Source: a virus
Lineage: Duplodnaviria; Heunggongvirae; Uroviricota; Caudoviricetes
Virus record (IMG/VR): IMGVR_UViG_3300045988_147970
DNA: 38,666 nt
Reading direction: 5' to 3' (one strand)
Shown here one piece after another: positions 4-38,666 of the stretch. Positions within the stretch are counted from its first letter, which is position 1, and every line of letters starts with the position of its first letter. Both the position numbers and the translations under genes were made by a program. Under the pieces are notes generated by a model. It did not search any database. It worked only from the letters and a program-made list of their open reading frames with translations, and was not told the DNA's origin.

Positions 4-231
4 TTATAAAGAACCTGAGCAGACAGCGGAGAAGTTTGTGCTATATCCTATTTTAGATACGGCCTCTGCGTATGTATAAGCAATGATAGGTTTATTTACC
101 GCTGAGGCTGGATCTTCTAACTGATTAACAGGAGCTGTACCAAATGCGACAATCAACCCAGCACTAACTTGTACTGGAGGAGTTATAGATGTAGCCAGCT
201 CAGATATATAAATACCGTGGCGATATCCCAT
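4..231 (-). CDS. tail sheath protein, 5-prime portion (N-terminal ~67 codons); gene continues at 37350..38666 if the window ends are joined
   Basis: N-terminus MGYRHGIYISE... resembles contractile sheath N-termini. Codons at 31..84 are identical to 38613..38666 and in frame with the sheath ORF at the other end; codons 4..30 (SAVCSGSL-stop) are junction-derived. Confidence 0.5.
   Translation of the reverse strand: MGYRHGIYISELATSITPPVQVSAGLIVAFGTAPVNQLEDPASAVNKPIIAYTYAEAVSKIGYSTNFSAVCSGSL
31..84. repeat. 54-bp exact direct repeat, copy 1 (copy 2 at 38613..38666)
   Basis: Identical 54-mer GAAGTTTGTGCTATATCCTATTTTAGATACGGCCTCTGCGTATGTATAAGCAAT at both ends; flanking bases differ (1..30 versus 38583..38612). 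Confidence 0.85.
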
Positions 232-6076: not shown

Positions 6077-7933
6077 CTATATGGTTACGCCTTTACTTAT
6101 AACTCTACGGCGTCTTCTACGTATACCTGACGAGTTCTGCACATACACATTACCTCGCATTTCCTGTTCGGCAAGCCAGTTAAAATTAGGGTTCAGAATT
6201 TCCATCGCGGCAGTTGCATAGTTACGGCAATCAAGAGGCTCGTTACGCTCGTAGACTTTCACCCACTTTTCTTTTGTCTGCCCATTTTTATATTCAAATA
6301 TTTTCTTCTCTGATAATAATCCTTTAAAGTATTCGGTATCATATCCTCTGTCAGAATCTAATGGGAAATGCATATAACCAGGACCAGGATCATGTAGTTT
6401 AATTCTTGCCATGATGGTCCCTTTACCATCATCAACCCCCAAATTAAACAACATAGCACCCACACGGTTATTATTACTTGGCTTTCCTATAAATGGTAAA
6501 CCTACCCCACCACGCCCCCTGATAGAGTATATTCGCCTTGATTCTCTCGGCTTAGTAAAGCGATATACCTCTGTCGTAAAATGCCCACCAGAGTCAATAC
6601 AAACGGAAGAAATCTGTAATTTTCGACCGTCACGGAATGACCAGCTACGGAGTAAGTATTCATCAAGTTGTTTCCAGACAACATCTTGTGCGGGATCACC
6701 TGGGAATATTTTATATTCTATCCCCCATGACTCCTTACCTTTTCCCCAACCGACCAATTCACAAACTAAATACGTGTCCTGTACGTCAACACCAGCACTT
6801 AACAATAAAACATCATCTGGTAAAAACTCTTCAAACCTTATTCTGCGTTGCAACAAGTATTCAGGATCGATATCGTCTTTAGCATCCTCTTTCCATGGCT
6901 CACCCAGCTTAAGGTTAATAAACTCCATTAATCCATTTTTATCGCGGTTTCTGGTTGCTTCCGTAAATTCTTCAACCAGCTCTGACAATGCAACCCACGG
7001 GGAGTAAAGACTGTTAATATGAAAACCAACAATACCTTTAACTCCAGTATGTTCAGCTATCCATACCCCCTTCGCCAACCAATCAACGTCTGGTTTACCA
7101 GATCCGCGCATAATCCCGCCGCACTCACAGCACTCATATCTGGCCGTTTCCGGTAACGCCTCACCTGAATCGCTCTTATCCCATCTGACTTGCGACCATT
7201 TCATCACCTGCATGGTGCCACAACATGGGCAAGGAACATGGTAGTAACGCTGATCGGAGAGCTTAAACCACTTGTGGATTTTGCTCGTTTCCTCCAAAAC
7301 AGGAGTAGAAACAAAAACTTTCTTACGATTATGAAAGTTGGTAGTACGCTGAATACCTAGTTTTAGTGGGTCGCCCTCCTGCGTCACACCGTAACGATCA
7401 ATCTCATCAGCTAACAGTATTCGAATTGGCCTGGATGCAAGACCTGCTGGGGAATTAGCACCAACAAGTGCTATATATCCACCAGCGTAATGCTTCATAC
7501 GTATAGTCGTGCTGGACTTTTTGGCTGCACCGCGCCCCTCTTTCCCTTCATGCAGCTTGTGTTTCAAACCAGGGGAATATTTGAACGTCGGATCAATACG
7601 CTCTTTTGAAAAAGCCTCAGCCGCCTCTACCGTTGGATAAATCATCAACTGAGGAGATGGCTCCTGATCTGCAAAGTAACCCATAACATTTAGCTGTAAT
7701 TCGGATTTACCAATTTGCGAGCTACATTGCATCACTACTGTTTCTGTATCAGCGTCACCAATAACATCCATTGGTTCACGCAAATATGGCACTCGGCTTG
7801 TACGCCACGGCCCTGGCTCTGGAGACGTTCCCGGCGCTACATGACGATACTTATCAGCCCATTCGGAAACAGTTAGCCGTGATTTAGGGCGAAGCGCACG
7901 GAAAAAAGCGGTGCTCCATACTGTTTCGCCCAT
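6077..7933 (-). CDS. terminase large subunit (lambda gpA family)
   Basis: 618 aa; N-terminal TVSEWADKYRHV resembles lambda gpA AVEWADANYYLP; Cys-rich CPCCG motif aligns with gpA CPHCG. Confidence 0.85.
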   Translation of the reverse strand: MGETVWSTAFFRALRPKSRLTVSEWADKYRHVAPGTSPEPGPWRTSRVPYLREPMDVIGDADTETVVMQCSSQIGKSELQLNVMGYFADQEPSPQLMIYPTVEAAEAFSKERIDPTFKYSPGLKHKLHEGKEGRGAAKKSSTTIRMKHYAGGYIALVGANSPAGLASRPIRILLADEIDRYGVTQEGDPLKLGIQRTTNFHNRKKVFVSTPVLEETSKIHKWFKLSDQRYYHVPCPCCGTMQVMKWSQVRWDKSDSGEALPETARYECCECGGIMRGSGKPDVDWLAKGVWIAEHTGVKGIVGFHINSLYSPWVALSELVEEFTEATRNRDKNGLMEFINLKLGEPWKEDAKDDIDPEYLLQRRIRFEEFLPDDVLLLSAGVDVQDTYLVCELVGWGKGKESWGIEYKIFPGDPAQDVVWKQLDEYLLRSWSFRDGRKLQISSVCIDSGGHFTTEVYRFTKPRESRRIYSIRGRGGVGLPFIGKPSNNNRVGAMLFNLGVDDGKGTIMARIKLHDPGPGYMHFPLDSDRGYDTEYFKGLLSEKKIFEYKNGQTKEKWVKVYERNEPLDCRNYATAAMEILNPNFNWLAEQEMRGNVYVQNSSGIRRRRRRVISKGVTI

Positions 7934-7938
7934 GAGGT

Positions 7939-8499
7939 TTATTCTTCCTGCTTAATAAATCGGGATTCCTGGAGCGCCTGAAGCGCAAAATTAATCTCGT
8001 CTTCAATAATGCGTTCGATCTCCCTGGCTGTTTTGCCTTCACAACGGGGAGCTGCTCTTGGAGCAATACTAAATAAGCGGCTACGCAATTCATTAGCTGC
8101 CAGAAATGCATCATCCCTGACCGCATCTTTAGCGATGAGAGAGCCTTCCTTTTCTTCAAATTCAAGGCGTTTCAGCTTTGCCTGATAAATTTTTTCTGCG
8201 GTCTTAGCCTTGTTGAATTGCACCGCAACACCGGAAGTACCACCAGCTAATCCGGCATCATCAGCGGGTAACTCTGGTTGTTCCGAAGATATCCCATGCC
8301 CTCTTTTTCCATTTTCAGCAGATACCTCACGACCAACCTGTCGGCTCGCTTCATAAGCCGCACTGGCTTTATCAAAATCCAGCTTGCCGCTTTTCAGCAC
8401 TGGAATGCGACCGGAACGACAGAGCTTCGTAACCATTGCCGGAGAAATACCTTTCCGGCGAGCAAACTCTGACTTACTGACGATGGCCATTACTTGCAA
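7939..8499 (-). CDS. terminase small subunit (Nu1-like, N-terminal HTH)
   Basis: 186 aa directly upstream of the large terminase; N-terminal helix-turn-helix-like segment (SKSEFARRKGISPAMVTKL). Confidence 0.6.
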   Translation of the reverse strand: MQVMAIVSKSEFARRKGISPAMVTKLCRSGRIPVLKSGKLDFDKASAAYEASRQVGREVSAENGKRGHGISSEQPELPADDAGLAGGTSGVAVQFNKAKTAEKIYQAKLKRLEFEEKEGSLIAKDAVRDDAFLAANELRSRLFSIAPRAAPRCEGKTAREIERIIEDEINFALQALQESRFIKQEE

Positions 8500-9080
8500 C
8501 CATTAGCAAGATACTGAACAAATCCCTCATGCGTTTCATGCGCGTCGTGGTACTGACGATAAACATCCAGCAACAATGCAATTTCCATATCCGTCGCGGG
8601 AATACGTTCTTTATCAATAGCCAGGTACTTAATTTGAACAACAGGGGAAGAATTATCGTCTTCTTCCTGCGGCTGTTCATCGCTTAACATTTCGTCAAGC
8701 TCTGCATCATTAAACCCAAGCAGATCAATATCAAAATCATCATCCATTAACTCTTTGACTTCTTCGGCCAGAAGCTGCATATCCCAGCCAGCATTTAAGG
8801 CCAGCTTGTTATCTGCAATCCTGTAAGCCTTCTTCTGTTTTTCAGAAAGGTTACTCAACCGAATCGCCGGAACTTTATCCATTTCCAGAATTTCGGCTGC
8901 TGCAAGCCGACCATGCCCCGCAATCAGTTCATTCTTTTCATCGATCAGCACAGGATTAGTGAAACCGAACTCACGGATACTGTTCACCAACTGTTCAACC
9001 TGCTCATCTGAATGAGTCCGTGAATTTTTGGCGTATCTGAGCAGCTTACCGACTGGTAAATATTCGATTTTTAGAGCCAT
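8490..9080 (-). CDS. ParB-like nuclease domain (ParB/Srx N-terminal domain) protein
   Basis: 196 aa with ParB N-domain box (LIAGHGRLAAA); stop overlaps the small terminase start; paralog of 11747..12370. Confidence 0.7.
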   Translation of the reverse strand: MALKIEYLPVGKLLRYAKNSRTHSDEQVEQLVNSIREFGFTNPVLIDEKNELIAGHGRLAAAEILEMDKVPAIRLSNLSEKQKKAYRIADNKLALNAGWDMQLLAEEVKELMDDDFDIDLLGFNDAELDEMLSDEQPQEEDDNSSPVVQIKYLAIDKERIPATDMEIALLLDVYRQYHDAHETHEGFVQYLANGCK

Positions 9081-14251: not shown

Positions 14252-14355
14252 TCTCCGGTTTAACCAGGGCGGGTATCGCTCGGTTTCGGGTATAATCATA
14301 GGAAATTTTTTCCCACCTGCAAAGCACTTTTTATATAAATATATAATTATATAAT
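14252..14355. repeat. ~104-bp duplicated promoter-leader module, copy A (copy B at 21832..21935)
   Basis: ~93% identical to 21832..21935; each copy sits directly upstream of a minus-strand gene start and carries the AGGAAA-N3-TTTCC operator-like motif and AT-rich TATATAA repeats. Confidence 0.6.
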
Positions 14356-17149: not shown

Positions 17150-17490
17150 TCATAAAGCAACAAATTACGCGGTAATCGCTTAACGCAGTTTTACTACGTT
17201 AAATGAAACACTACACCCAGTTACCACCTAAAACAAGGTTTCCCCATAAAAAAACCTTCATATCGTGGTTAATCGATCAATAAAAAATCAATGTTCAACT
17301 TTTTACCAACCGAACATCCCGACCAGGACTTCCATAATATTCGCCGATATGCCACTGCTTAAGTTGAGTAATCTTCTCCAACTTAACTCCCATAGAGTCC
17401 AGTTTCTGCCATGTTTTCGGTTGTATGTGCTTCATTACCCGCTCTGAATATCTGAATACTGCTCGTAAGCGCATGGTTTCTCACTACAGC

Positions 17491-17898
17491 TTATATATGT
17501 TCACGACTGGACTTCCAGAATATCCACGCCAGATCAACATTCGGGTCCTGGTAATTCATCCCTTCGTTGGCACGAATCAATAATGTTTCATGGTTTTTAT
17601 CACCCGCATGAAACCTGACAAGTGCTTCGAACTTTTCGCGCCCATCATCCGGCACTACCACCGTTGGCGGCGCGGAGAATAGAGGTTTAGGTGATATTTC
17701 CGCACGTTTTGCGTATGCTTCAACTGTGTCAGGGTTAAACAGGATTATGTTTTCACCGCATTCCCACGCTACCGGCTCTGCTTCCAGTGATGCCAGAGCA
17801 ATTTCATAAGCACGGCGCTCAATATTGTCTCGGACGTCCAGGCTGCCTATGCGCTCTTTGATTTCTTTAATCAGTTCTTTGTCGGTTAAAGTGGTCAT
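17491..17898 (-). CDS. hypothetical protein (candidate late regulator by position)
   Basis: 135-aa ORF immediately upstream of the late-region leader and terminator; no motif recognised. Confidence 0.3.
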   Translation of the reverse strand: MTTLTDKELIKEIKERIGSLDVRDNIERRAYEIALASLEAEPVAWECGENIILFNPDTVEAYAKRAEISPKPLFSAPPTVVVPDDGREKFEALVRFHAGDKNHETLLIRANEGMNYQDPNVDLAWIFWKSSREHI

Positions 17899-18104
17899 TT
17901 GTTAATCCTCAAAACTTTATGCCCGGGCGCAAAAGCACGCGTTTTGTCGGCGCTTATTCGCCACCCATCTTTACGTGCCTCTTTTGCACAGCCAGCCCAT
18001 GACGTACCGATATATTCACCGAAGTCTGGTACTGGATATACACCTTCCGTACACTGGCGGCAGTCACAATAGAGATGCATGGTGTAACTTGCGGCAACAG
18101 CCAT
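17895..18104 (-). CDS. small Cys-rich protein (possible zinc-binding)
   Basis: Start at MAVAASY (residue 37 of the track ORF) with GGAG 8 nt upstream; contains CDCRQC. Confidence 0.3.
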   Translation of the reverse strand: MAVAASYTMHLYCDCRQCTEGVYPVPDFGEYIGTSWAGCAKEARKDGWRISADKTRAFAPGHKVLRINK

Positions 18105-21831: not shown

Positions 21832-21935
21832 TCTCCGGTTTAACCAGGGCGGGTATCGCTCGGTTTCGGGTATAACCTTAGGAAATTTTTTCCCACCCGT
21901 AAAGCACTTTTTATATAAATCTATAATTATATAAA
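21832..21935. repeat. ~104-bp duplicated promoter-leader module, copy B
   Basis: See copy A; upstream of the DUF3560-like gene start at 21825. Confidence 0.6.
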
Positions 21936-22018
21936 TAATAGTGACTGGTGCTTTTTTAGGCTGCACATTAAACATTTTTGTTTAGCTTATTGGCAAGGTC
22001 TTGAAAAAGACATTTCAG

Positions 22019-22034
22019 CAATGGTATACCATTG
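22019..22034. promoter_or_regulatory. 16-bp perfect palindrome CAATGGTATACCATTG, operator-like
   Basis: Lies ~60 bp upstream of the plus-strand regulator start in the divergent intergenic region; overlaps a -35-like TTGAAC. Confidence 0.5.
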
Positions 22035-22091
22035 AACATGGTATCGGCTGAATTTTACAATTAACACATTTTAAACAATTGGAGGTGCCAA

Positions 22092-22376
22092 ATGGCTAAA
22101 CCAAAATCTGAAATTGATGCTATTCGAGCATTAACAGAAGTAACAATTAAAGGTTTTGAGCAGGTTGCTCAGGCATTAGTTGATATGAGAGAAGCTCAGG
22201 GAAAAGTCGCACGAGCAACATATAATGGATTAACCTCCTCAGGAAAATCTCGCTATGTTGCATCGCTAGTAGAGGAAGTAGGATCACAAGCTGAAGTAAG
22301 CCGCATGTTAAATATCACACCTGGGCGCGTTAGCCAGCTTATGAAGTCCGAAAAAAACCGCAAAAATGGTAAGTAA
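22092..22376 (+). CDS. putative DNA-binding regulator; the only convincing plus-strand gene
   Basis: 94 aa; GGAGGTG RBS 5 nt upstream; C-terminal HTH-like SQAEVSRMLNITPGRVSQLMK; 16-bp perfect palindrome in its promoter region. Confidence 0.45.
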   Translation: MAKPKSEIDAIRALTEVTIKGFEQVAQALVDMREAQGKVARATYNGLTSSGKSRYVASLVEEVGSQAEVSRMLNITPGRVSQLMKSEKNRKNGK

Positions 22377-22380
22377 ATAA

Positions 22381-22403
22381 GTAAGGCCCCAATGGGGCCT
22401 TAC
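22381..22403. terminator. bidirectional rho-independent terminator between convergent genes
   Basis: Near-perfect hairpin GTAAGGCCCC-AAT-GGGGCCTTAC flanked by A/T-rich sequence on both sides. Confidence 0.6.
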
Positions 22404-22409
22404 ATTATG

Positions 22410-22709
22410 TTAGACATGGAACGCTACTCGCTTTCCTGTAGGAAGCTCAACATCCAGGCTTAATTTGCCTCCCATAGCTTCAACGTAACGCTTTAATGTC
22501 GCCAGCTTTAAATCATTTCCGCGCTGCTCCAGCTTTGTTACTGCTGGCTGGCTTATACCCATCGCCTCAGCAACCTGTTTTTGTGATAACTGGAGTTCTT
22601 CACGCATCATCTGCAAGCCGACCTCAAGAATCATCTCATCTGCCATTTCTTTAATTCGCGCCTGGCTTTCAGGTGAACGGCTGGCAATCACCTCATCTAA
22701 TGTTCTCAT
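22410..22709 (-). CDS. HTH XRE-family antitoxin (HigA-like)
   Basis: 99 aa; HTH QKQVAEAMGISQPAVTKLEQ; start overlaps the toxin stop by 1 nt (ATGA). Confidence 0.65.
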   Translation of the reverse strand: MRTLDEVIASRSPESQARIKEMADEMILEVGLQMMREELQLSQKQVAEAMGISQPAVTKLEQRGNDLKLATLKRYVEAMGGKLSLDVELPTGKRVAFHV

Positions 22710-23056
22710 TACTTGCTCTCCAGTGTGTTCAGATGTGCTGCAAACTCATCCTCAGCTATACGCACCAGTTTTTTATAAAACCGCTTATCGTTACTTTTGT
22801 CTCCTGCACAAAGAACGATGGCCCGACGAATCGGATCGAACGCATAAAAGGCTCTTATCGGACGGCCAGAAAACTGAACGCGAAGCTCTTTCATATTTTT
22901 GTACCGAGAACCTTTTACGGTATCGGCATATGGCCTGGGTAACTCAGGTCCGTAAACCTGTAGATTTTTCAAATCAGCCAAAACCTTTTCCTGAAGAGCC
23001 TCTTCTTGCTCATTTAGCCAGTCGTCAAATCGCTGGCTAAAAAGTACCGTCCACAT
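22709..23056 (-). CDS. RelE/HigB-superfamily toxin, phage Gp49-like
   Basis: Start at MWTV with AGGA RBS; ADTVKGSRYKNMKELRV...AFYAFDPIRRAIVLCAGDK...KRFYKKLVRIAEDEF matches the Gp49-like toxin pattern. Confidence 0.65.
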   Translation of the reverse strand: MWTVLFSQRFDDWLNEQEEALQEKVLADLKNLQVYGPELPRPYADTVKGSRYKNMKELRVQFSGRPIRAFYAFDPIRRAIVLCAGDKSNDKRFYKKLVRIAEDEFAAHLNTLESK

Positions 23057-23300
23057 GCTCAATCCTATAACCTGTAGTTTATACCACTGACTATATAACC
23101 CGTAGGTTATAATTTCAAGAAAAACGGGGCTATTTAACATAATGGACGTTATCGGCACCACCGGATCACCGTTCATTGTCGGATCTAAAAAATCCGCTCA
23201 AAAGATCATGTTTTCCTGGGCGTTTTCCACCGTTTTTTATGTTGCTTATTTGTTAATGAAATCTCGTTTTCAGTTTCGCCTCATTTTCGACGCGAAAGCC

Positions 23301-23591
23301 CTATTTTTGTGACTTTACTCCTGGCATATGGACTTCCCAGCGACGAATCCCCATAGCTGCGCAAAAATCAGCCACATAATTCAATCCCGCCCATTCGCGG
23401 ATACCACCACGGGCTTTTTCAATGAAAACGGCAATCCCTTTTTTATTGAGAGCAAAAAGCCGCCAGCTTTTTGTCACTTCGTCCTGGGTAGCCACAACAC
23501 AAGTGAAAGCTCCCATGCGATACAGGTCCAAGAACTCTTTGCGTGTTTTGCGTACAAGTTCCATAACAAACCTCATATTTGCATGTTTCAA
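23301..23591 (-). CDS. hypothetical protein
   Basis: 96-aa ORF whose start overlaps the stop of the upstream HTH gene. Confidence 0.3.
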   Translation of the reverse strand: MKHANMRFVMELVRKTRKEFLDLYRMGAFTCVVATQDEVTKSWRLFALNKKGIAVFIEKARGGIREWAGLNYVADFCAAMGIRRWEVHMPGVKSQK

Positions 23592-23887
23592 ACATCTGTT
23601 TTGTTATCAATGAAGATTAACCCTAACCCAGCGAAGTAACACAGCAGCGCCCAGGCTGCATACGGAATGCTGGATCTGGATGTGGACTCCTTTAACATCT
23701 GCCAGTTGCGAACATTGCGACTATCTTTTAAGCCTAGTTTTTTGGCTAACTGCGAGCCGCTCATTCCGGTCAGGCCAATGACTGCCCGAACTTCTCCACA
23801 TGTAGGAGATTCCCATTCATCCGCTTTTTTTAAACAAGCCGGATTCAACATTTTTAAAACAGTATCTTTATCCATAACCATCTCCAT
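23588..23887 (-). CDS. XRE-like HTH protein with C-terminal hydrophobic segment
   Basis: HTH-like GMSGSQLAKKLGLKDSRNVRNWQ; C-terminal IPYAAWALLCYFAGLGLIFI; palindrome AGGAAA-N3-TTTCCT just upstream of the start. Confidence 0.4.
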   Translation of the reverse strand: MEMVMDKDTVLKMLNPACLKKADEWESPTCGEVRAVIGLTGMSGSQLAKKLGLKDSRNVRNWQMLKESTSRSSIPYAAWALLCYFAGLGLIFIDNKTDV

Positions 23888-23906
23888 TTATTATATCTAC
23901 GATGGT

Positions 23907-23921
23907 AGGAAATCTTTTCCT
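23907..23921. promoter_or_regulatory. operator-like perfect inverted repeat AGGAAA-TCT-TTTCCT
   Basis: Perfect 6-bp inverted repeat with 3-bp spacer ~20 bp upstream of the HTH gene start; near-identical copies at 14300..14314 and 21880..21894. Confidence 0.5.
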
Positions 23922-24368
23922 ATGTGGCAATAGAAATTTACTACATTGCGTATAAGACAAGTTTTCTATGTCTAATAGGAAATGATGTTTCTTACATTTT
24001 ATCGCGTTCTGATGGCTACTGTGTGCGTATTTATCGACGTTTATTGATAAGGCTCGCCCCTTCCTCCTGCAAAGCCCGGCCGTAGGCCTTATTTCGGCCT
24101 TATATAAATTGATTTTGTATAGTTCGAAACGTGCCGTTTCGAAAAGGATGATCAGGCTGCTCCATGCCTCCGGCAAGTGCCGGAGGAGGTATATTTGAGC
24201 GTAGCGACTCGAACCGGCGCGAGCTTTAGCTCGCTGCAAGGGCGAACATATTCACAGGCAAAGCCTGTGTAAGTTAAATAAAGAAAGTCTTAATAAAAGA
24301 AAGTGATTTTGCATTTATTTGTTTAGTGCATCTATTATAAAAAACCATTTGCATATACATATCAGAAC

Positions 24369-24377
24369 TGTGGATAA
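24369..24377. promoter_or_regulatory. DnaA box (TGTGGATAA) within candidate oriR
   Basis: Perfect 9-mer consensus ~145 bp downstream of the repA stop in an AT-rich stretch. Confidence 0.5.
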
Positions 24378-24518
24378 CTTTATTAGCCGATGCCTGTAAA
24401 GGCGATATTTTTGCTGTGTTCAGGTTTAGAGAAAATTAATTTAGATTGTTTTTTGAACAGATATTTTATTGCGACGTAGATAATCCTCCGGTAAAACCGG
24501 ATTCATCATTCAGGTGGG

Positions 24519-25367
24519 TTAATGTTGGAGTGATTTCCAGGTCTTTCTTAACCTGTTATAACGCTGCTCAACGAGGGATCGTAAATATGCAAGGTCAGCA
24601 CCAGGATACATGCCATCAGCAAATTCCTGACTAACCTCTCTGGTGATTTGATGACGAAGTTCGGCCTCTCCCTTTTCCCGAACAAGACGCGCAGCTCTCT
24701 CCGCTGCTTTCTGTTTTGCCTTTATCTCTCTGGCCGTCTTCCTCTGACGCCATACATTCTCCATCTGCTCCTGAATAACAATACGCTTATAATCAGCCTC
24801 CGTTATCGCTTTTTTAAGCCGTTCGCTATTCTTCGCATTGAAGTAATTAAGTTTCTGGCTAACCGCACGTCTCCATGCTTGTTCAGTAATACCAACGGTT
24901 TCCAGCAGTTGATCACGAATCTCTATTTTCGCTGGCCAATACTGTTTATTCACCCGATCCCAGCGACGTTCATAATCAATAAAACCTAACGCTTTCAGTT
25001 GCGACAACGCCCTTGTACAGCGCGTTATAGACTTGTTCCCAGCTTCGGATACGGTAGACAGGCCGCAAAAATCAGCCAACGCCTCAGCACTAGCCAGAAC
25101 CCGCTTAGAAATGATGTTTACATGGTGCAAAATCGCAGCGATCACAGCATTAATCGCCCGACGACGATGCTCGTTTATCCGGCGCTTCCGCTCTGACGGT
25201 TGATTAACGTAGAACGCAACCTCACACGTAAGATCACGCCCATTAATGCGCTGTAAAGCATCAGATAACACCAGCGGCAGCTTGTGCGTATGGTGCTTTG
25301 GAGGCTGGAACTCCGGCGACAAATTACAAACGTAAGCTGAACGTAGAGACGGCATTGGTCTATCCAT
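24519..25367 (-). CDS. repA: replication initiator RepA, IncFII RepA1 family
   Basis: AINAVIAAILHHVNIISKRVLASAEALADFCGLSTVSEAGNKSITRCTRALSQLKALGFIDYE aligns with my recollection of R100 RepA1. Start set at MDRP; the track ORF extends 44 codons further upstream in frame. Confidence 0.8.
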   Translation of the reverse strand: MDRPMPSLRSAYVCNLSPEFQPPKHHTHKLPLVLSDALQRINGRDLTCEVAFYVNQPSERKRRINEHRRRAINAVIAAILHHVNIISKRVLASAEALADFCGLSTVSEAGNKSITRCTRALSQLKALGFIDYERRWDRVNKQYWPAKIEIRDQLLETVGITEQAWRRAVSQKLNYFNAKNSERLKKAITEADYKRIVIQEQMENVWRQRKTAREIKAKQKAAERAARLVREKGEAELRHQITREVSQEFADGMYPGADLAYLRSLVEQRYNRLRKTWKSLQH

Positions 25368-25382
25368 ATGTTCGCTCTTGCG

Positions 25383-25495
25383 TCCACGGAAAACCAACGT
25401 ATAATGGGAGTTGTCGAGGCGCCCATGGATTGTTGTTGTTGGTTTTCCGTGGATGTCGCAAGAAGCCCGCAGATTTATCTGCGGGCTTTTTGTTT
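25383..25495 (+). ncRNA. candidate CopA-like antisense RNA opposite the repA leader
   Basis: 16-bp perfect inverted repeat (25383..25398 with 25438..25453) followed by hairpin AGCCCGCAGA-TTTA-TCTGCGGGCT and a T-run on the plus strand; boundaries inferred. Confidence 0.4.
25464..25495 (+). terminator. rho-independent terminator on the plus strand, antisense to the repA leader
   Basis: Perfect 10-bp stem with 4-nt loop followed by TTTTTGTTT. Confidence 0.55.
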
Positions 25496-25862
25496 CCATA
25501 TCTGGTCACTTTCCAACCAGACACCCACAATCATAACCACGTTACGTGGTTTTAAGAGAACTCTACCACAACACTTTCGGTCATGCACGAAGTCTCTCAC
25601 TGATCGAACGATAATCCACCAGTAAAAGGATCTAAATTGGATCTCGTTTTGCGAGCATCATACTACTGGCCTAACTCCAGTCAATGATTCCCAGCCAGAA
25701 ACCTGCGGTAAACTCATCGTTCAGCAATATGCTGTCCGGCTTCAAAGATAAGGTGACATCATCCCTTAACAGCGCGGCCAGCTCCGTTAAAGGGTTGTTT
25801 TGACTTAATGCAAAACCGCTAATAAACATATTGGCGGTTTTGTTCCTTAAATCATCTTGCCT

Positions 25863-26438
25863 TTACACTAATTCTGGCCATTCGATATCAGGGGCATTTT
25901 CCGGCTGAACGCGATTCAGTAGCACACGGTATTTTTTCCAGTGTGTCAGGCTTAACTTTTCTTCCTCGGTAGCCATATCTAAATCGACAGCATCCTGCAG
26001 AGTGGCAATAATTTCACCTGCATATGCAATCAGCTCTTTCTTCTGAGAGTCAGCCGCTCTGACAAGCGCATCACGCTCTGCATTCTCATCATTCACCCAC
26101 GCATTGCCGTTCCATTTCTGATAATCCCCCTCCGGGGAAATGGCTGTCACGTCTGGAGGTAATACGCCAAGTTCAGAAATATAAATGGCTGCTCCCGTTT
26201 TCGTTTCATAGACGGTCTTTCCGCGATGGTCTTCCATCAGTTCCCATTTCATTTCATCTGCATTGAAAACGGCTGCATAACCCGCCGGAATATCAGGCGG
26301 TGCAATATCTGTACTGTTTGCAGGCAGGCCAGTATACGGTGGGATATATGCGTCACTTTCGCCAATAAATTCATTGGTTCCATCAAGTAAATTGAAAACG
26401 CGGATAGTTTGTGCTTCTGCACTCATTCTGAAAGCCAT
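25863..26438 (-). CDS. tail fiber assembly protein
   Basis: 191 aa immediately downstream of the tail fiber gene with overlapping stop/start; pattern typical of Tfa chaperones. Confidence 0.7.
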
Positions 26439-37349: not shown

Positions 37350-38666
37350 TTATTCAGAAAACAAGTTCAGCAGATAATCAGGATTATATTCCATGACGAA
37401 CTCTATATCTCTGGCAGGTGAGAATGGTGTCATTTTTACATGGAATTTAACAATCCCGTCCATCAATGACGTAATCGTGTTTTCAGACTGATCAAAGGTA
37501 ACAACACCACCTGCAATATCCTGATTACCAGTGAGGCCGTTAAGCCAAATATTCGCACTAGTAACAATCGATTCAATTAATCGACGGTTTGCAGGATTGT
37601 CTATTTTTGACCAATGCGAAAGAATTAACGTATTACCCACCCAGTTAAACATACGTCGGCAAACACGAAATGCGTCTTTGGGGTCTGTAGATGTTGGATA
37701 AATAGCATTACGGTTTCCCCATGATTTCCAACCATCAAAATTAAGGCTTGTTACAATCCCCTGTCCATTTAAGTAGTTTGCCTGGCTAATGTTAAGCCAT
37801 ACCTCACTGCCATCTTTACGTACAGCACCGTCCATCTGTAGTTTTATATTTGACGGAGAACGTGATGGAATATCATCATACTGACTATCCAGCAAGCATG
37901 TTGCTGCAGCTAAATGGGTTGAGTGATGGTAAATATTGTCACCAAGTTTCACCATCGGCCAGCACACTGTCTGGTTAGCTGCCATATGATTATTGTTCTG
38001 CTTCCATTCAGGAACAGCAGAATAATCACTGATAGTAGATTTATCAGTCGGCGCATCGGTGATAGCTTCTGCTTTGAACAATTCACTAATCAGCGCAGCT
38101 TTAGCCGCCATTAGCTGGCCAACTTCACTATCAGAACTAAATCCAGGCGCAATCACTTGTCCAGGAACCAACTTGAAGCGGGGATACACATCAGACAGTA
38201 ACTCAAGCCCTGTATTGGCTTTAGTGTTGGAATCCACACCACCGATAATGTCATTTTTAGTTACGGCACCGGGATCAAGATGCGTATAACTAACCTTAAG
38301 AGTAGCGTCTTTTTCGGTAATTTTTCCTCCGCTAATAGCGGTAATGACCGTATAGCCATTATCATCCAGCGCCAGCACATAATCGGTGTCAACCGTTAAT
38401 CCTGCCGAATCACCATCTGCTTTTTTCACAACAACAGATTTATATAAGACACCATCGTTAGAGAGCGTACCTTTCCCGCCAGAAAGTTTTACTACCTCAT
38501 CAGGTACGTCTTTCTTATGCTTTGCTGGATCAAGCACATTAATAAATACAACTGGCGCAACACCATATATTCCAAATGCGACTTTAATTACTTCGCTTAA
38601 AGTATATTTCTCGAAGTTTGTGCTATATCCTATTTTAGATACGGCCTCTGCGTATGTATAAGCAAT
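37350..38666 (-). CDS. tail sheath protein, 3-prime major portion (reading frame open to the window end)
   Basis: Track ORF 37350..38537 plus 43 in-frame codons to 38666; the first 18 of these are the 54-bp repeat also at 31..84, linking to the N-terminal fragment at 4..231; immediately upstream of the tube gene. Confidence 0.8.
   Translation of the reverse strand: MAYTYAEAVSKIGYSTNFEKYTLSEVIKVAFGIYGVAPVVFINVLDPAKHKKDVPDEVVKLSGGKGTLSNDGVLYKSVVVKKADGDSAGLTVDTDYVLALDDNGYTVITAISGGKITEKDATLKVSYTHLDPGAVTKNDIIGGVDSNTKANTGLELLSDVYPRFKLVPGQVIAPGFSSDSEVGQLMAAKAALISELFKAEAITDAPTDKSTISDYSAVPEWKQNNNHMAANQTVCWPMVKLGDNIYHHSTHLAAATCLLDSQYDDIPSRSPSNIKLQMDGAVRKDGSEVWLNISQANYLNGQGIVTSLNFDGWKSWGNRNAIYPTSTDPKDAFRVCRRMFNWVGNTLILSHWSKIDNPANRRLIESIVTSANIWLNGLTGNQDIAGGVVTFDQSENTITSLMDGIVKFHVKMTPFSPARDIEFVMEYNPDYLLNLFSE
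38613..38666. repeat. 54-bp exact direct repeat, copy 2 (ends exactly at the window end)
   Basis: See copy 1 at 31..84. Confidence 0.85.

Follow-up and report, generated by a model that had tools for sequence, protein, structure and literature searches.

A Gp49-type toxin-antitoxin operon beside the repA gene of a phage-plasmid, with a probable role in plasmid maintenance

A toxin-first gene pair with its own promoter and operators

The window, by which we mean the whole 38,666-nucleotide stretch of IMG/VR record IMGVR_UViG_3300045988_147970, is a phage-plasmid of ~38.6 kb that carries head, tail-sheath, tape-measure, baseplate, holin, lysin and ParB-domain genes together with an IncFII-type RepA. 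Its minus strand holds two open reading frames (ORFs) at 22410-23056, a toxin gene followed by an antitoxin gene, which a preliminary description of this DNA had taken for a HigB/HigA-like toxin-antitoxin (TA) pair and a probable addiction module. The features of the locus are as follows.

23056 to 22709, minus strand: toxin gene, 115 amino acids (aa), Gp49/Tad/'HigB' type with a predicted RelE fold; TAA stop at 22711-22709
22709 to 22410, minus strand: antitoxin gene, 99 aa; N-terminal segment of ~30 residues, XRE-type helix-turn-helix (HTH; residues 32-83) and C-terminal tail
23063-23066, minus strand: Shine-Dalgarno sequence AGGA of the toxin gene, 6 nt 5' of its ATG, read from the sequence
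22718-22721, minus strand: Shine-Dalgarno sequence GGAG of the antitoxin gene, within the 3' end of the toxin gene and 8 nt 5' of the antitoxin ATG, read from the sequence
23090-23118, minus strand: sigma-70-like promoter; -35 TTGAAA (23118-23113), 17-nt spacer, -10 TATAGT (23095-23090)
23094-23111, no strand: putative operator O1, perfect 7-4-7 palindrome TATAACC-CGTA-GGTTATA occupying the -35/-10 spacer
23066-23083, no strand: putative operator O2, TATAACC-TGTA-GTTTATA with 6/7 arm pairs, between the -10 element and the ribosome-binding site
22381-22403, no strand: bidirectional hairpin terminator GTAAGGCCCCA-T-TGGGGCCTTAC, with 11-bp perfect arms and a T-rich tail on both strands
22410-23145, minus strand: extent of the mobile cassette, comprising promoter, operators and both genes

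On the coding strand the two genes meet at ...AAG TAATG AGA, where the last A of the TAA stop is also the first A of the ATG. The overlap of one nucleotide given in the preliminary description is therefore correct, with the motif being TAATG and not ATGA. This overlap, together with the GGAG inside the toxin gene, probably couples translation of the antitoxin to that of the toxin. The ORF list also contained a 155-aa version of the toxin starting from an ATG at 23176. We rejected this start and retained the 115-aa one, because homologues are 115-116 aa long and because the promoter and both operators fall inside the longer version's extension. Plus-strand ORFs across the cassette region gave no Pfam family match.

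The promoter matches the consensus at 10 of 12 positions and was the best site in a scan of 22000-24600. Since the total number of sites in that scan was not above that in shuffled sequences, the main grounds for accepting the promoter are its position and the operators that surround it. No second promoter serving the antitoxin was seen within the toxin gene in the same scan. O1 and O2 lie 28 bp apart, centre to centre, and the operator motif, with up to two mismatches allowed, occurs just twice in the 38.7-kb window, both times at the toxin promoter, against 0.13 occurrences expected. A search for LexA boxes gave no more sites than chance would and none near the promoter, leaving direct SOS control unsupported, and an Rfam scan of 21900-26200 returned nothing at gathering level and nothing inside the cassette. 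At the other end of the operon, the hairpin terminator separates the antitoxin stop from a convergent gene at 22092-22376 and ends both.

Family and predicted fold of toxin and antitoxin

The toxin matched the Pfam family Gp49 (PF05973, DUF891) with E=8.6e-23 and 80.7 bits (gathering cut-off 23.9) over 89 of 90 profile positions. No other Pfam family was matched at E<=0.01, and neither the canonical HigB model (Proteus vulgaris Rts1 type) nor ParE was among the hits. The HigB/HigA-like label of the preliminary description is thus apt for the order of the genes and not for the toxin family: 'HigB' is a conventional name here, and Pfam places the protein among the Gp49 toxins, outside canonical HigB. 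In PHROGs it fell into phrog_3445 ('toxin', 5e-33), and RefSeq names it 'RelE/ParE family'. In NCBIfam both proteins gave sub-threshold matches only, to RelE/ParE-family and antitoxin models.

An AlphaFold2 model of the toxin, built on a 28-sequence alignment, was of high quality, with a predicted local distance difference test (pLDDT) score of 92.4 and a predicted template modelling (pTM) score of 0.85. Its top Foldseek matches were RelE (2khe, 4fxe), Streptococcus pneumoniae HigB (6af4, template modelling (TM) score 0.73) and Vibrio cholerae HigB2 (5jaa, TM 0.56). ParE2 ranked fourteenth (E=0.018), below RelE and HigB. The model thus assigns the toxin to the RelE superfamily, as the preliminary description had proposed for its Gp49-like toxin, and the link to RelE and HigB comes from the fold comparison alone. 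The modelled toxin shares the RelE-type fold of the toxins of S. pneumoniae HigBA (6AF3/6AF4) and V. cholerae HigBA2 (5JAA), from which it differs in sequence, identity to the solved HigBA toxins being merely 14-17%. Every residue that is invariant in the family alignment is retained in the window toxin. These include Gly64, which aligns with Gly64 of the HigB of IncC plasmids and is the same in all 28 homologues.

The second gene encodes an XRE-family HTH protein, and the toxin-first arrangement that had been proposed is borne out by the ORF positions together with the Pfam match of this protein to HTH_3 (PF01381, E=4e-10). HTH_37 (1.4e-7) and HTH_31 were also matched. In PHROGs it was placed in phrog_2339 ('HTH DNA binding protein', 1e-31), with weak matches to many phage repressor PHROGs. 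Its nearest solved relatives are all antitoxins, namely Mycobacterium tuberculosis HigA3 (6lty) and HigA2 (7ewc) and S. pneumoniae HigA (6af3), the alignment covering the HTH and its flanks.

Conservation of the pair and its operators

We assembled a comparative set with one genome per species, giving 80 loci in Enterobacterales, Pasteurellaceae, Moraxellaceae, Aeromonas, Photobacterium and Pelistega whose toxins are 53-96% identical to that of the window. An antitoxin homologue was found on the same strand, directly 3' of the toxin gene, in 80/80 loci; the gap between the genes was 0-35 nt in 79 of them and 123 nt in the remaining one. The pairing of toxin and antitoxin is therefore far above chance expectation.

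The operators are conserved in the same set. Of 81 loci (the window and the 80 others), 66 had an 18-bp palindrome of the form NATA...TATN within 130 nt upstream, compared with a mean of 0.67 loci in shuffled sequences and 6 of 720 among other 130-nt windows of the same loci. The palindromes lie either near -55 and -28 (a two-site, enterobacterial type) or near -31 (a one-site, Acinetobacter type), and in related enterobacterial loci the equivalent of O1 is found ~53-60 nt 5' of the start codon. The inner bases of the arms vary by lineage (AAC/GTT, AGC/GCT, GAC/ATC, GCC/GGC) with the symmetry retained. Such lineage-specific and yet symmetric sites are as would be expected of a dimeric repressor co-evolving with its operators.

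In comparisons with distant loci, the nonsynonymous divergence (dN) was 0.07-0.36, and synonymous sites were saturated in all comparisons but one. Against the Yersinia pestis plasmid pPCP1, the ratio of nonsynonymous to synonymous divergence (dN/dS) was 0.27 for the toxin gene and 0.08 for the antitoxin gene. These substitution patterns indicate purifying selection on both genes.

The cassette in phage-plasmids and on unrelated plasmids

The window is ~99% identical to 47-49-kb Escherichia coli plasmids and to the Yersinia phages vB_YpM_39, 41 and 44, which hold the same pair with the annotation 'HigB2'. Among 59 plasmid records carrying this phage's capsid gene, at least 58 contain the cassette, in the same position next to repA; 57 of these were among the best 60 cassette matches listed, and the 58th is split across the start of its record. 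The TA pair is therefore a core feature of this phage-plasmid family. Its closeness to the replicon, remarked on in the preliminary description, was confirmed: the IncFII-type repA gene (24519-25499; IncFII_repA, 1.3e-43) lies 1.46 kb from the cassette. One family member, NZ_CP037450.1, has a copy (17288-17981) that is 7 bp shorter, 96.7% identical and without annotated genes, possibly a decayed TA. Another, NZ_CP009073.1, is the 48,488-bp plasmid of the quality-control strain E. coli ATCC 25922 and carries the same cassette at 97.9% identity.

The distribution of the pair extends well beyond this family. Homologues are encoded in 1987 plasmid records, a protein 100% identical to the antitoxin is present on at least 1000 contigs, and a toxin identical at every residue is encoded on NZ_AP022164. 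Annotations of the pair already exist for more than 100 public plasmids, pPCP1 among them, and RefSeq lists it as a type II TA system.

Over its 736 bp the cassette is 95.2% identical (blastn) to positions 7790-8524 of pPCP1, where the genes are named YPPCP1.08c/09c; the toxins differ at 5 residues and the antitoxins at 2. pPCP1 is a ColE1-type plasmid of 9.6 kb without phage genes, on which the cassette is a neighbour of pla. We considered that the Y. pestis toxin might be inactivated, a variant (P0012) appearing frameshifted at residues 74-83, and dropped the idea when the gene on pPCP1 of strain CO92 proved intact. A 120-bp block upstream of the TA promoter (23123-23242) is 81% identical to pPCP1 6403-6522, just upstream of pla, in rearranged order, which hints at common ancestry of the pla flank and this region of the phage-plasmid. 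A pPCP1-like sequence also appears in the Bacillaceae assembly of Amphibacillus jilinensis Y1 (NZ_JH976447.1, Scaffold15, 9631 bp); the 3345 bases compared are 99.9-100% identical to pPCP1 (9612 bp), and the scaffold is almost certainly a contamination. A third backbone is NZ_CP037908.1, in which the cassette and a homologue of the convergent gene (window 22092-22376) are found together at 1659-2687, with 98.6% identity, next to a ParA gene. This is a 28.5-kb MOBC/MPF_T conjugative plasmid that carries cfr and IS26.

Characterised relatives

The best-studied relative is the HigBA (tad-ata) system of IncC plasmids, whose toxin strongly inhibits growth and is a ribosome-dependent mRNA endoribonuclease inactivated by the substitution G64V (Qi, Kamruzzaman & Iredell 2021, PMC8265657). 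Cloned on pACYC184, the operon raised retention from ~88% to 99-100% over 70 generations; it is the sole TA reported for the IncC backbone and apparently essential to its stable maintenance (PMC8265657). The toxin also causes cell elongation and is induced by ciprofloxacin (PMC8265657). The window proteins are 54% (toxin) and 47% (antitoxin) identical to those of IncC over their full lengths. The toxin gene comes first in both, the protein lengths are equal, the essential Gly64 is shared, and both pairs are plasmid-borne near maintenance genes. This homology, along with the context of the locus, supports the proposal of the preliminary description that the pair is a probable addiction module. 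The two systems differ in their hosts, a conjugative plasmid of 130-180 kb as against a phage-plasmid of ~38-48 kb, and in the junction of their genes, which lie a few bases apart in IncC and overlap by 1 nt in the window. Ciprofloxacin induction may not transfer to the window pair, since its promoter is without a LexA-box-like site.

Related systems have also been described in Acinetobacter baumannii. There the HigBA2 toxin is an RNase that forms complexes with its antitoxin and acts as co-repressor in the autorepression of the operon; a test plasmid that is otherwise unstable is stabilised by higBA2 (Armalyte et al. 2018, PMC5906591). For this pair, as for that of IncC, growth inhibition by the toxin and relief of it by the antitoxin have been demonstrated. 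The same study notes that Gp49-domain toxins have little similarity to the HigB proteins of P. vulgaris, E. coli and V. cholerae (PMC5906591). As in the window, the genes of A. baumannii HigBA1 and HigBA2, found on plasmids such as pAB120, encode a Gp49-domain toxin and, downstream of it, an XRE antitoxin. Homologues of the window toxin on Acinetobacter plasmids share 54-60% identity with it. Acinetobacter loci differ in having a single palindrome (TATAGAC-N4-ATCTATA type) ~31 nt upstream in place of the two TATAACC-type sites found here.

Among phages that live as plasmids, N15 offers a more distant parallel. The family owes its name Tad-Ata to the module of Paracoccus plasmid pAMI2, and the literature counts N15 gp49 among the DUF891/COG4679 toxins; according to the title of Dziewit et al. 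(2007), N15 encodes a 'toxin-antitoxin-stabilizing system'. N15 gp49/gp48 shares with the window pair a phage-plasmid host, the toxin-first order and an identical 1-nt overlap, and the HTH of gp48 is 35% identical to that of the window antitoxin over 57 residues (E=4e-9). The toxins are further apart: BLASTP gave no alignment of gp49 with the window toxin, and hhalign returned E=8e-4 with a probability of just 24%. By these comparisons the N15 toxin would be at most a remote relative, and the window toxin probably belongs to a different subclade.

Canonical HigB/HigA of P. vulgaris Rts1 resembles the window pair in its reversed gene order with an HTH antitoxin. A functional analogue is phd-doc of P1, the addiction module of a phage maintained as a plasmid. 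Its proteins are unrelated to those described here (Doc is a Fic-fold kinase), and its antitoxin gene comes first.

Interpretation

Gene identity, predicted fold, operon anatomy, synteny, conserved operators, purifying selection and core status in the phage-plasmid family are direct results of this analysis, and we are highly confident that the pair is a functional TA system of the Gp49 (Tad-Ata, or Acinetobacter/IncC-type 'HigBA') family. Taken as a whole, the locus is likely to be a self-contained, autoregulated type II TA operon that penalises plasmid-free segregants. In the mechanism we propose, a single promoter would transcribe the toxin gene first and then the antitoxin gene. The RelE-fold toxin most likely cuts mRNA, probably on the ribosome, which would arrest translation and growth, and the antitoxin most likely neutralises it through direct binding. 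Through its HTH, an antitoxin dimer would most likely bind both 18-bp palindromes, over the promoter spacer and the transcript start, and thereby repress its own operon. On loss of the phage-plasmid from a daughter cell, degradation of the labile antitoxin would leave the stable toxin free to halt growth, resulting in post-segregational killing. RNase activity, neutralisation, autorepression, differential stability of the two proteins and stabilisation enter this scheme by analogy with characterised homologues. That the pair measurably stabilises its native element we regard as probable.

Several points weigh against this interpretation. In the PDB, no relative was detected by the toxin sequence or by the 28-sequence profile, and the active site is predicted from fold and conservation. 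The antitoxin model was of low quality (pLDDT 67, pTM 0.31) and was left out of the fold search. When the A. baumannii homologue was deleted from its native plasmid, pAB120, retention was not lowered (PMC5906591), so that the capacity of a TA system to stabilise a test plasmid may be of no consequence to the replicon that carries it. ParA is also present in relatives of the window, and stability may therefore rest mainly elsewhere; the window itself is without the ParA region and may not be a stably maintained plasmid. Finally, none of the studies retrieved in our literature search dealt with this orthologue or with its counterpart on pPCP1.

The last of these considerations but one, together with the A. 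baumannii deletion, would suit a selfish passenger, that is, a functional TA with little effect on the stability of the phage-plasmid that persists as a mobile 736-bp unit which is hard to lose. Near-identical cassettes on three unrelated backbones (the phage-plasmid, the ColE1-type pPCP1 and the MOBC conjugative cfr plasmid) also fit such a passenger. It is nevertheless unlikely in our judgement, given that at least 58 of the 59 family members keep the cassette at the same place near repA and that the IncC backbone is reported to have no TA besides the homologue, on which its stable maintenance apparently depends (PMC8265657). In a role mainly in defence or competition, toxin would be released on entry of a phage or an incompatible plasmid and lead to abortive infection or exclusion. 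Abortive-infection defence had been touched on in the preliminary description, and nothing in our analysis lent that remark specific support. Several type II TA systems of prophages and plasmids can abort phage infection, the toxin weakly matches the C-terminal part of the PADLOC candidate NsnC (28 bits), and the HTH matches a PADLOC HTH model. These are weak, partial-domain matches, however, and PADLOC recognised no defence-system architecture; the characterised relatives that we found have all been studied as stabilisation or stress modules, and the family is very widespread on plasmids (the 1987 records), often beside partition genes. We consider defence as the main role improbable. There is a small chance that the cassette, in addition to stabilising its element or in place of doing so, acts conditionally in the life cycle of the phage-plasmid or when genetic elements come into conflict, and as a retention or conflict device on pPCP1. 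If so, release of the toxin might for example abort infection by competing phages, keep out rival plasmids or stop host translation upon loss or induction of the prophage-plasmid, and the same 736-bp unit would also help to keep the pla virulence plasmid pPCP1 in Y. pestis.

Two further alternatives concern the individual proteins, and both appear very improbable. The HTH protein might be a regulator of the phage-plasmid life cycle, an immunity or Cro-like repressor with the upstream ORF as an inactive remnant. The cI-like repressor region of the relatives is indeed missing from the window, and the antitoxin has its weak matches to phage repressor PHROGs. Against this, the operator motif is confined within the window to the protein's own promoter, the HTH gene accompanies the toxin gene at all 80 loci, chromosomes and non-phage plasmids included, and the toxin retains its invariant residues, among them Gly64, in a gene under purifying selection. 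The toxin, for its part, might be a ParE-like gyrase poison and not an mRNA endonuclease, as might be read from its RefSeq name, from the presence of ParE2 among the weaker fold matches and from the cell elongation and ciprofloxacin induction of the IncC homologue (PMC8265657). However, RelE and HigB structures outrank ParE, no Pfam ParE match was obtained, and the IncC and A. baumannii homologues reduce or cleave RNA (PMC8265657, PMC5906591).

As a discovery, the pair has little value: it is in RefSeq as a type II TA, is called 'HigB2' in a Yersinia phage genome, and has ~54%-identical relatives already characterised as RNase-type addiction modules. Its practical value lies in annotation, as the core maintenance pair of a common family of ~48-kb E. 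coli phage-plasmids that includes the ATCC 25922 plasmid. With the same cassette present beside pla on pPCP1 and on the cfr plasmid, a functional result would inform the persistence of several medically relevant replicons.

Neighbouring genes and the host element

Two small genes on the minus strand, at 23301-23564 and 23588-23875, separate the cassette from repA. One of their products has 95 aa and weakly matches an HTH model ('mobile mystery protein A', 1e-4; phrog_8351), and the other is an 87-aa protein of phrog_4595. Both genes are kept in the phage-plasmid family and the Yersinia phages, are missing from pPCP1, and could form a regulator pair for the replicon. Upstream of repA, at 25897-26095 on the minus strand, Rfam gave a match to IS009 that stays below the gathering threshold (52 bits, threshold 117, E=3e-10).

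Two other identities were considered for the element and rejected. It is not a 'p0111'-type phage-plasmid, p0111 being a P1-group replicon, and it is not of the pMT1 type, the Yersinia plasmid matches being to pPCP1 and not to pMT1.

Compared with its 47-49-kb relatives, the window is missing ~8.8 kb (11034-19822 of the relative L001) between a DUF3560 gene and the gene at 22092. In the relatives this block comprises a Ref nuclease gene, a DUF1064 gene, a candidate repressor of 218 aa with an HTH, ParA, an ORF6N antirepressor-like gene and a small HTH gene. The junction lies within a repeat of ~103-114 bp that is present in 2 copies in the window (21832-21934 and 14252-14354) and in 4 copies in L001, each just 5' of a leftward gene block. 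It looks as if a repeat-mediated deletion, or an assembly collapse, removed a likely lysogeny and partition region from the window. A perfect direct repeat of 54 nt is found near the two ends of the window (31-84 and 38613-38666), inside the tail-sheath gene, preceded by 30 nt that are unmatched in relatives. This end repeat suggests that the window represents a complete element of ~38.6 kb in circularly permuted form.

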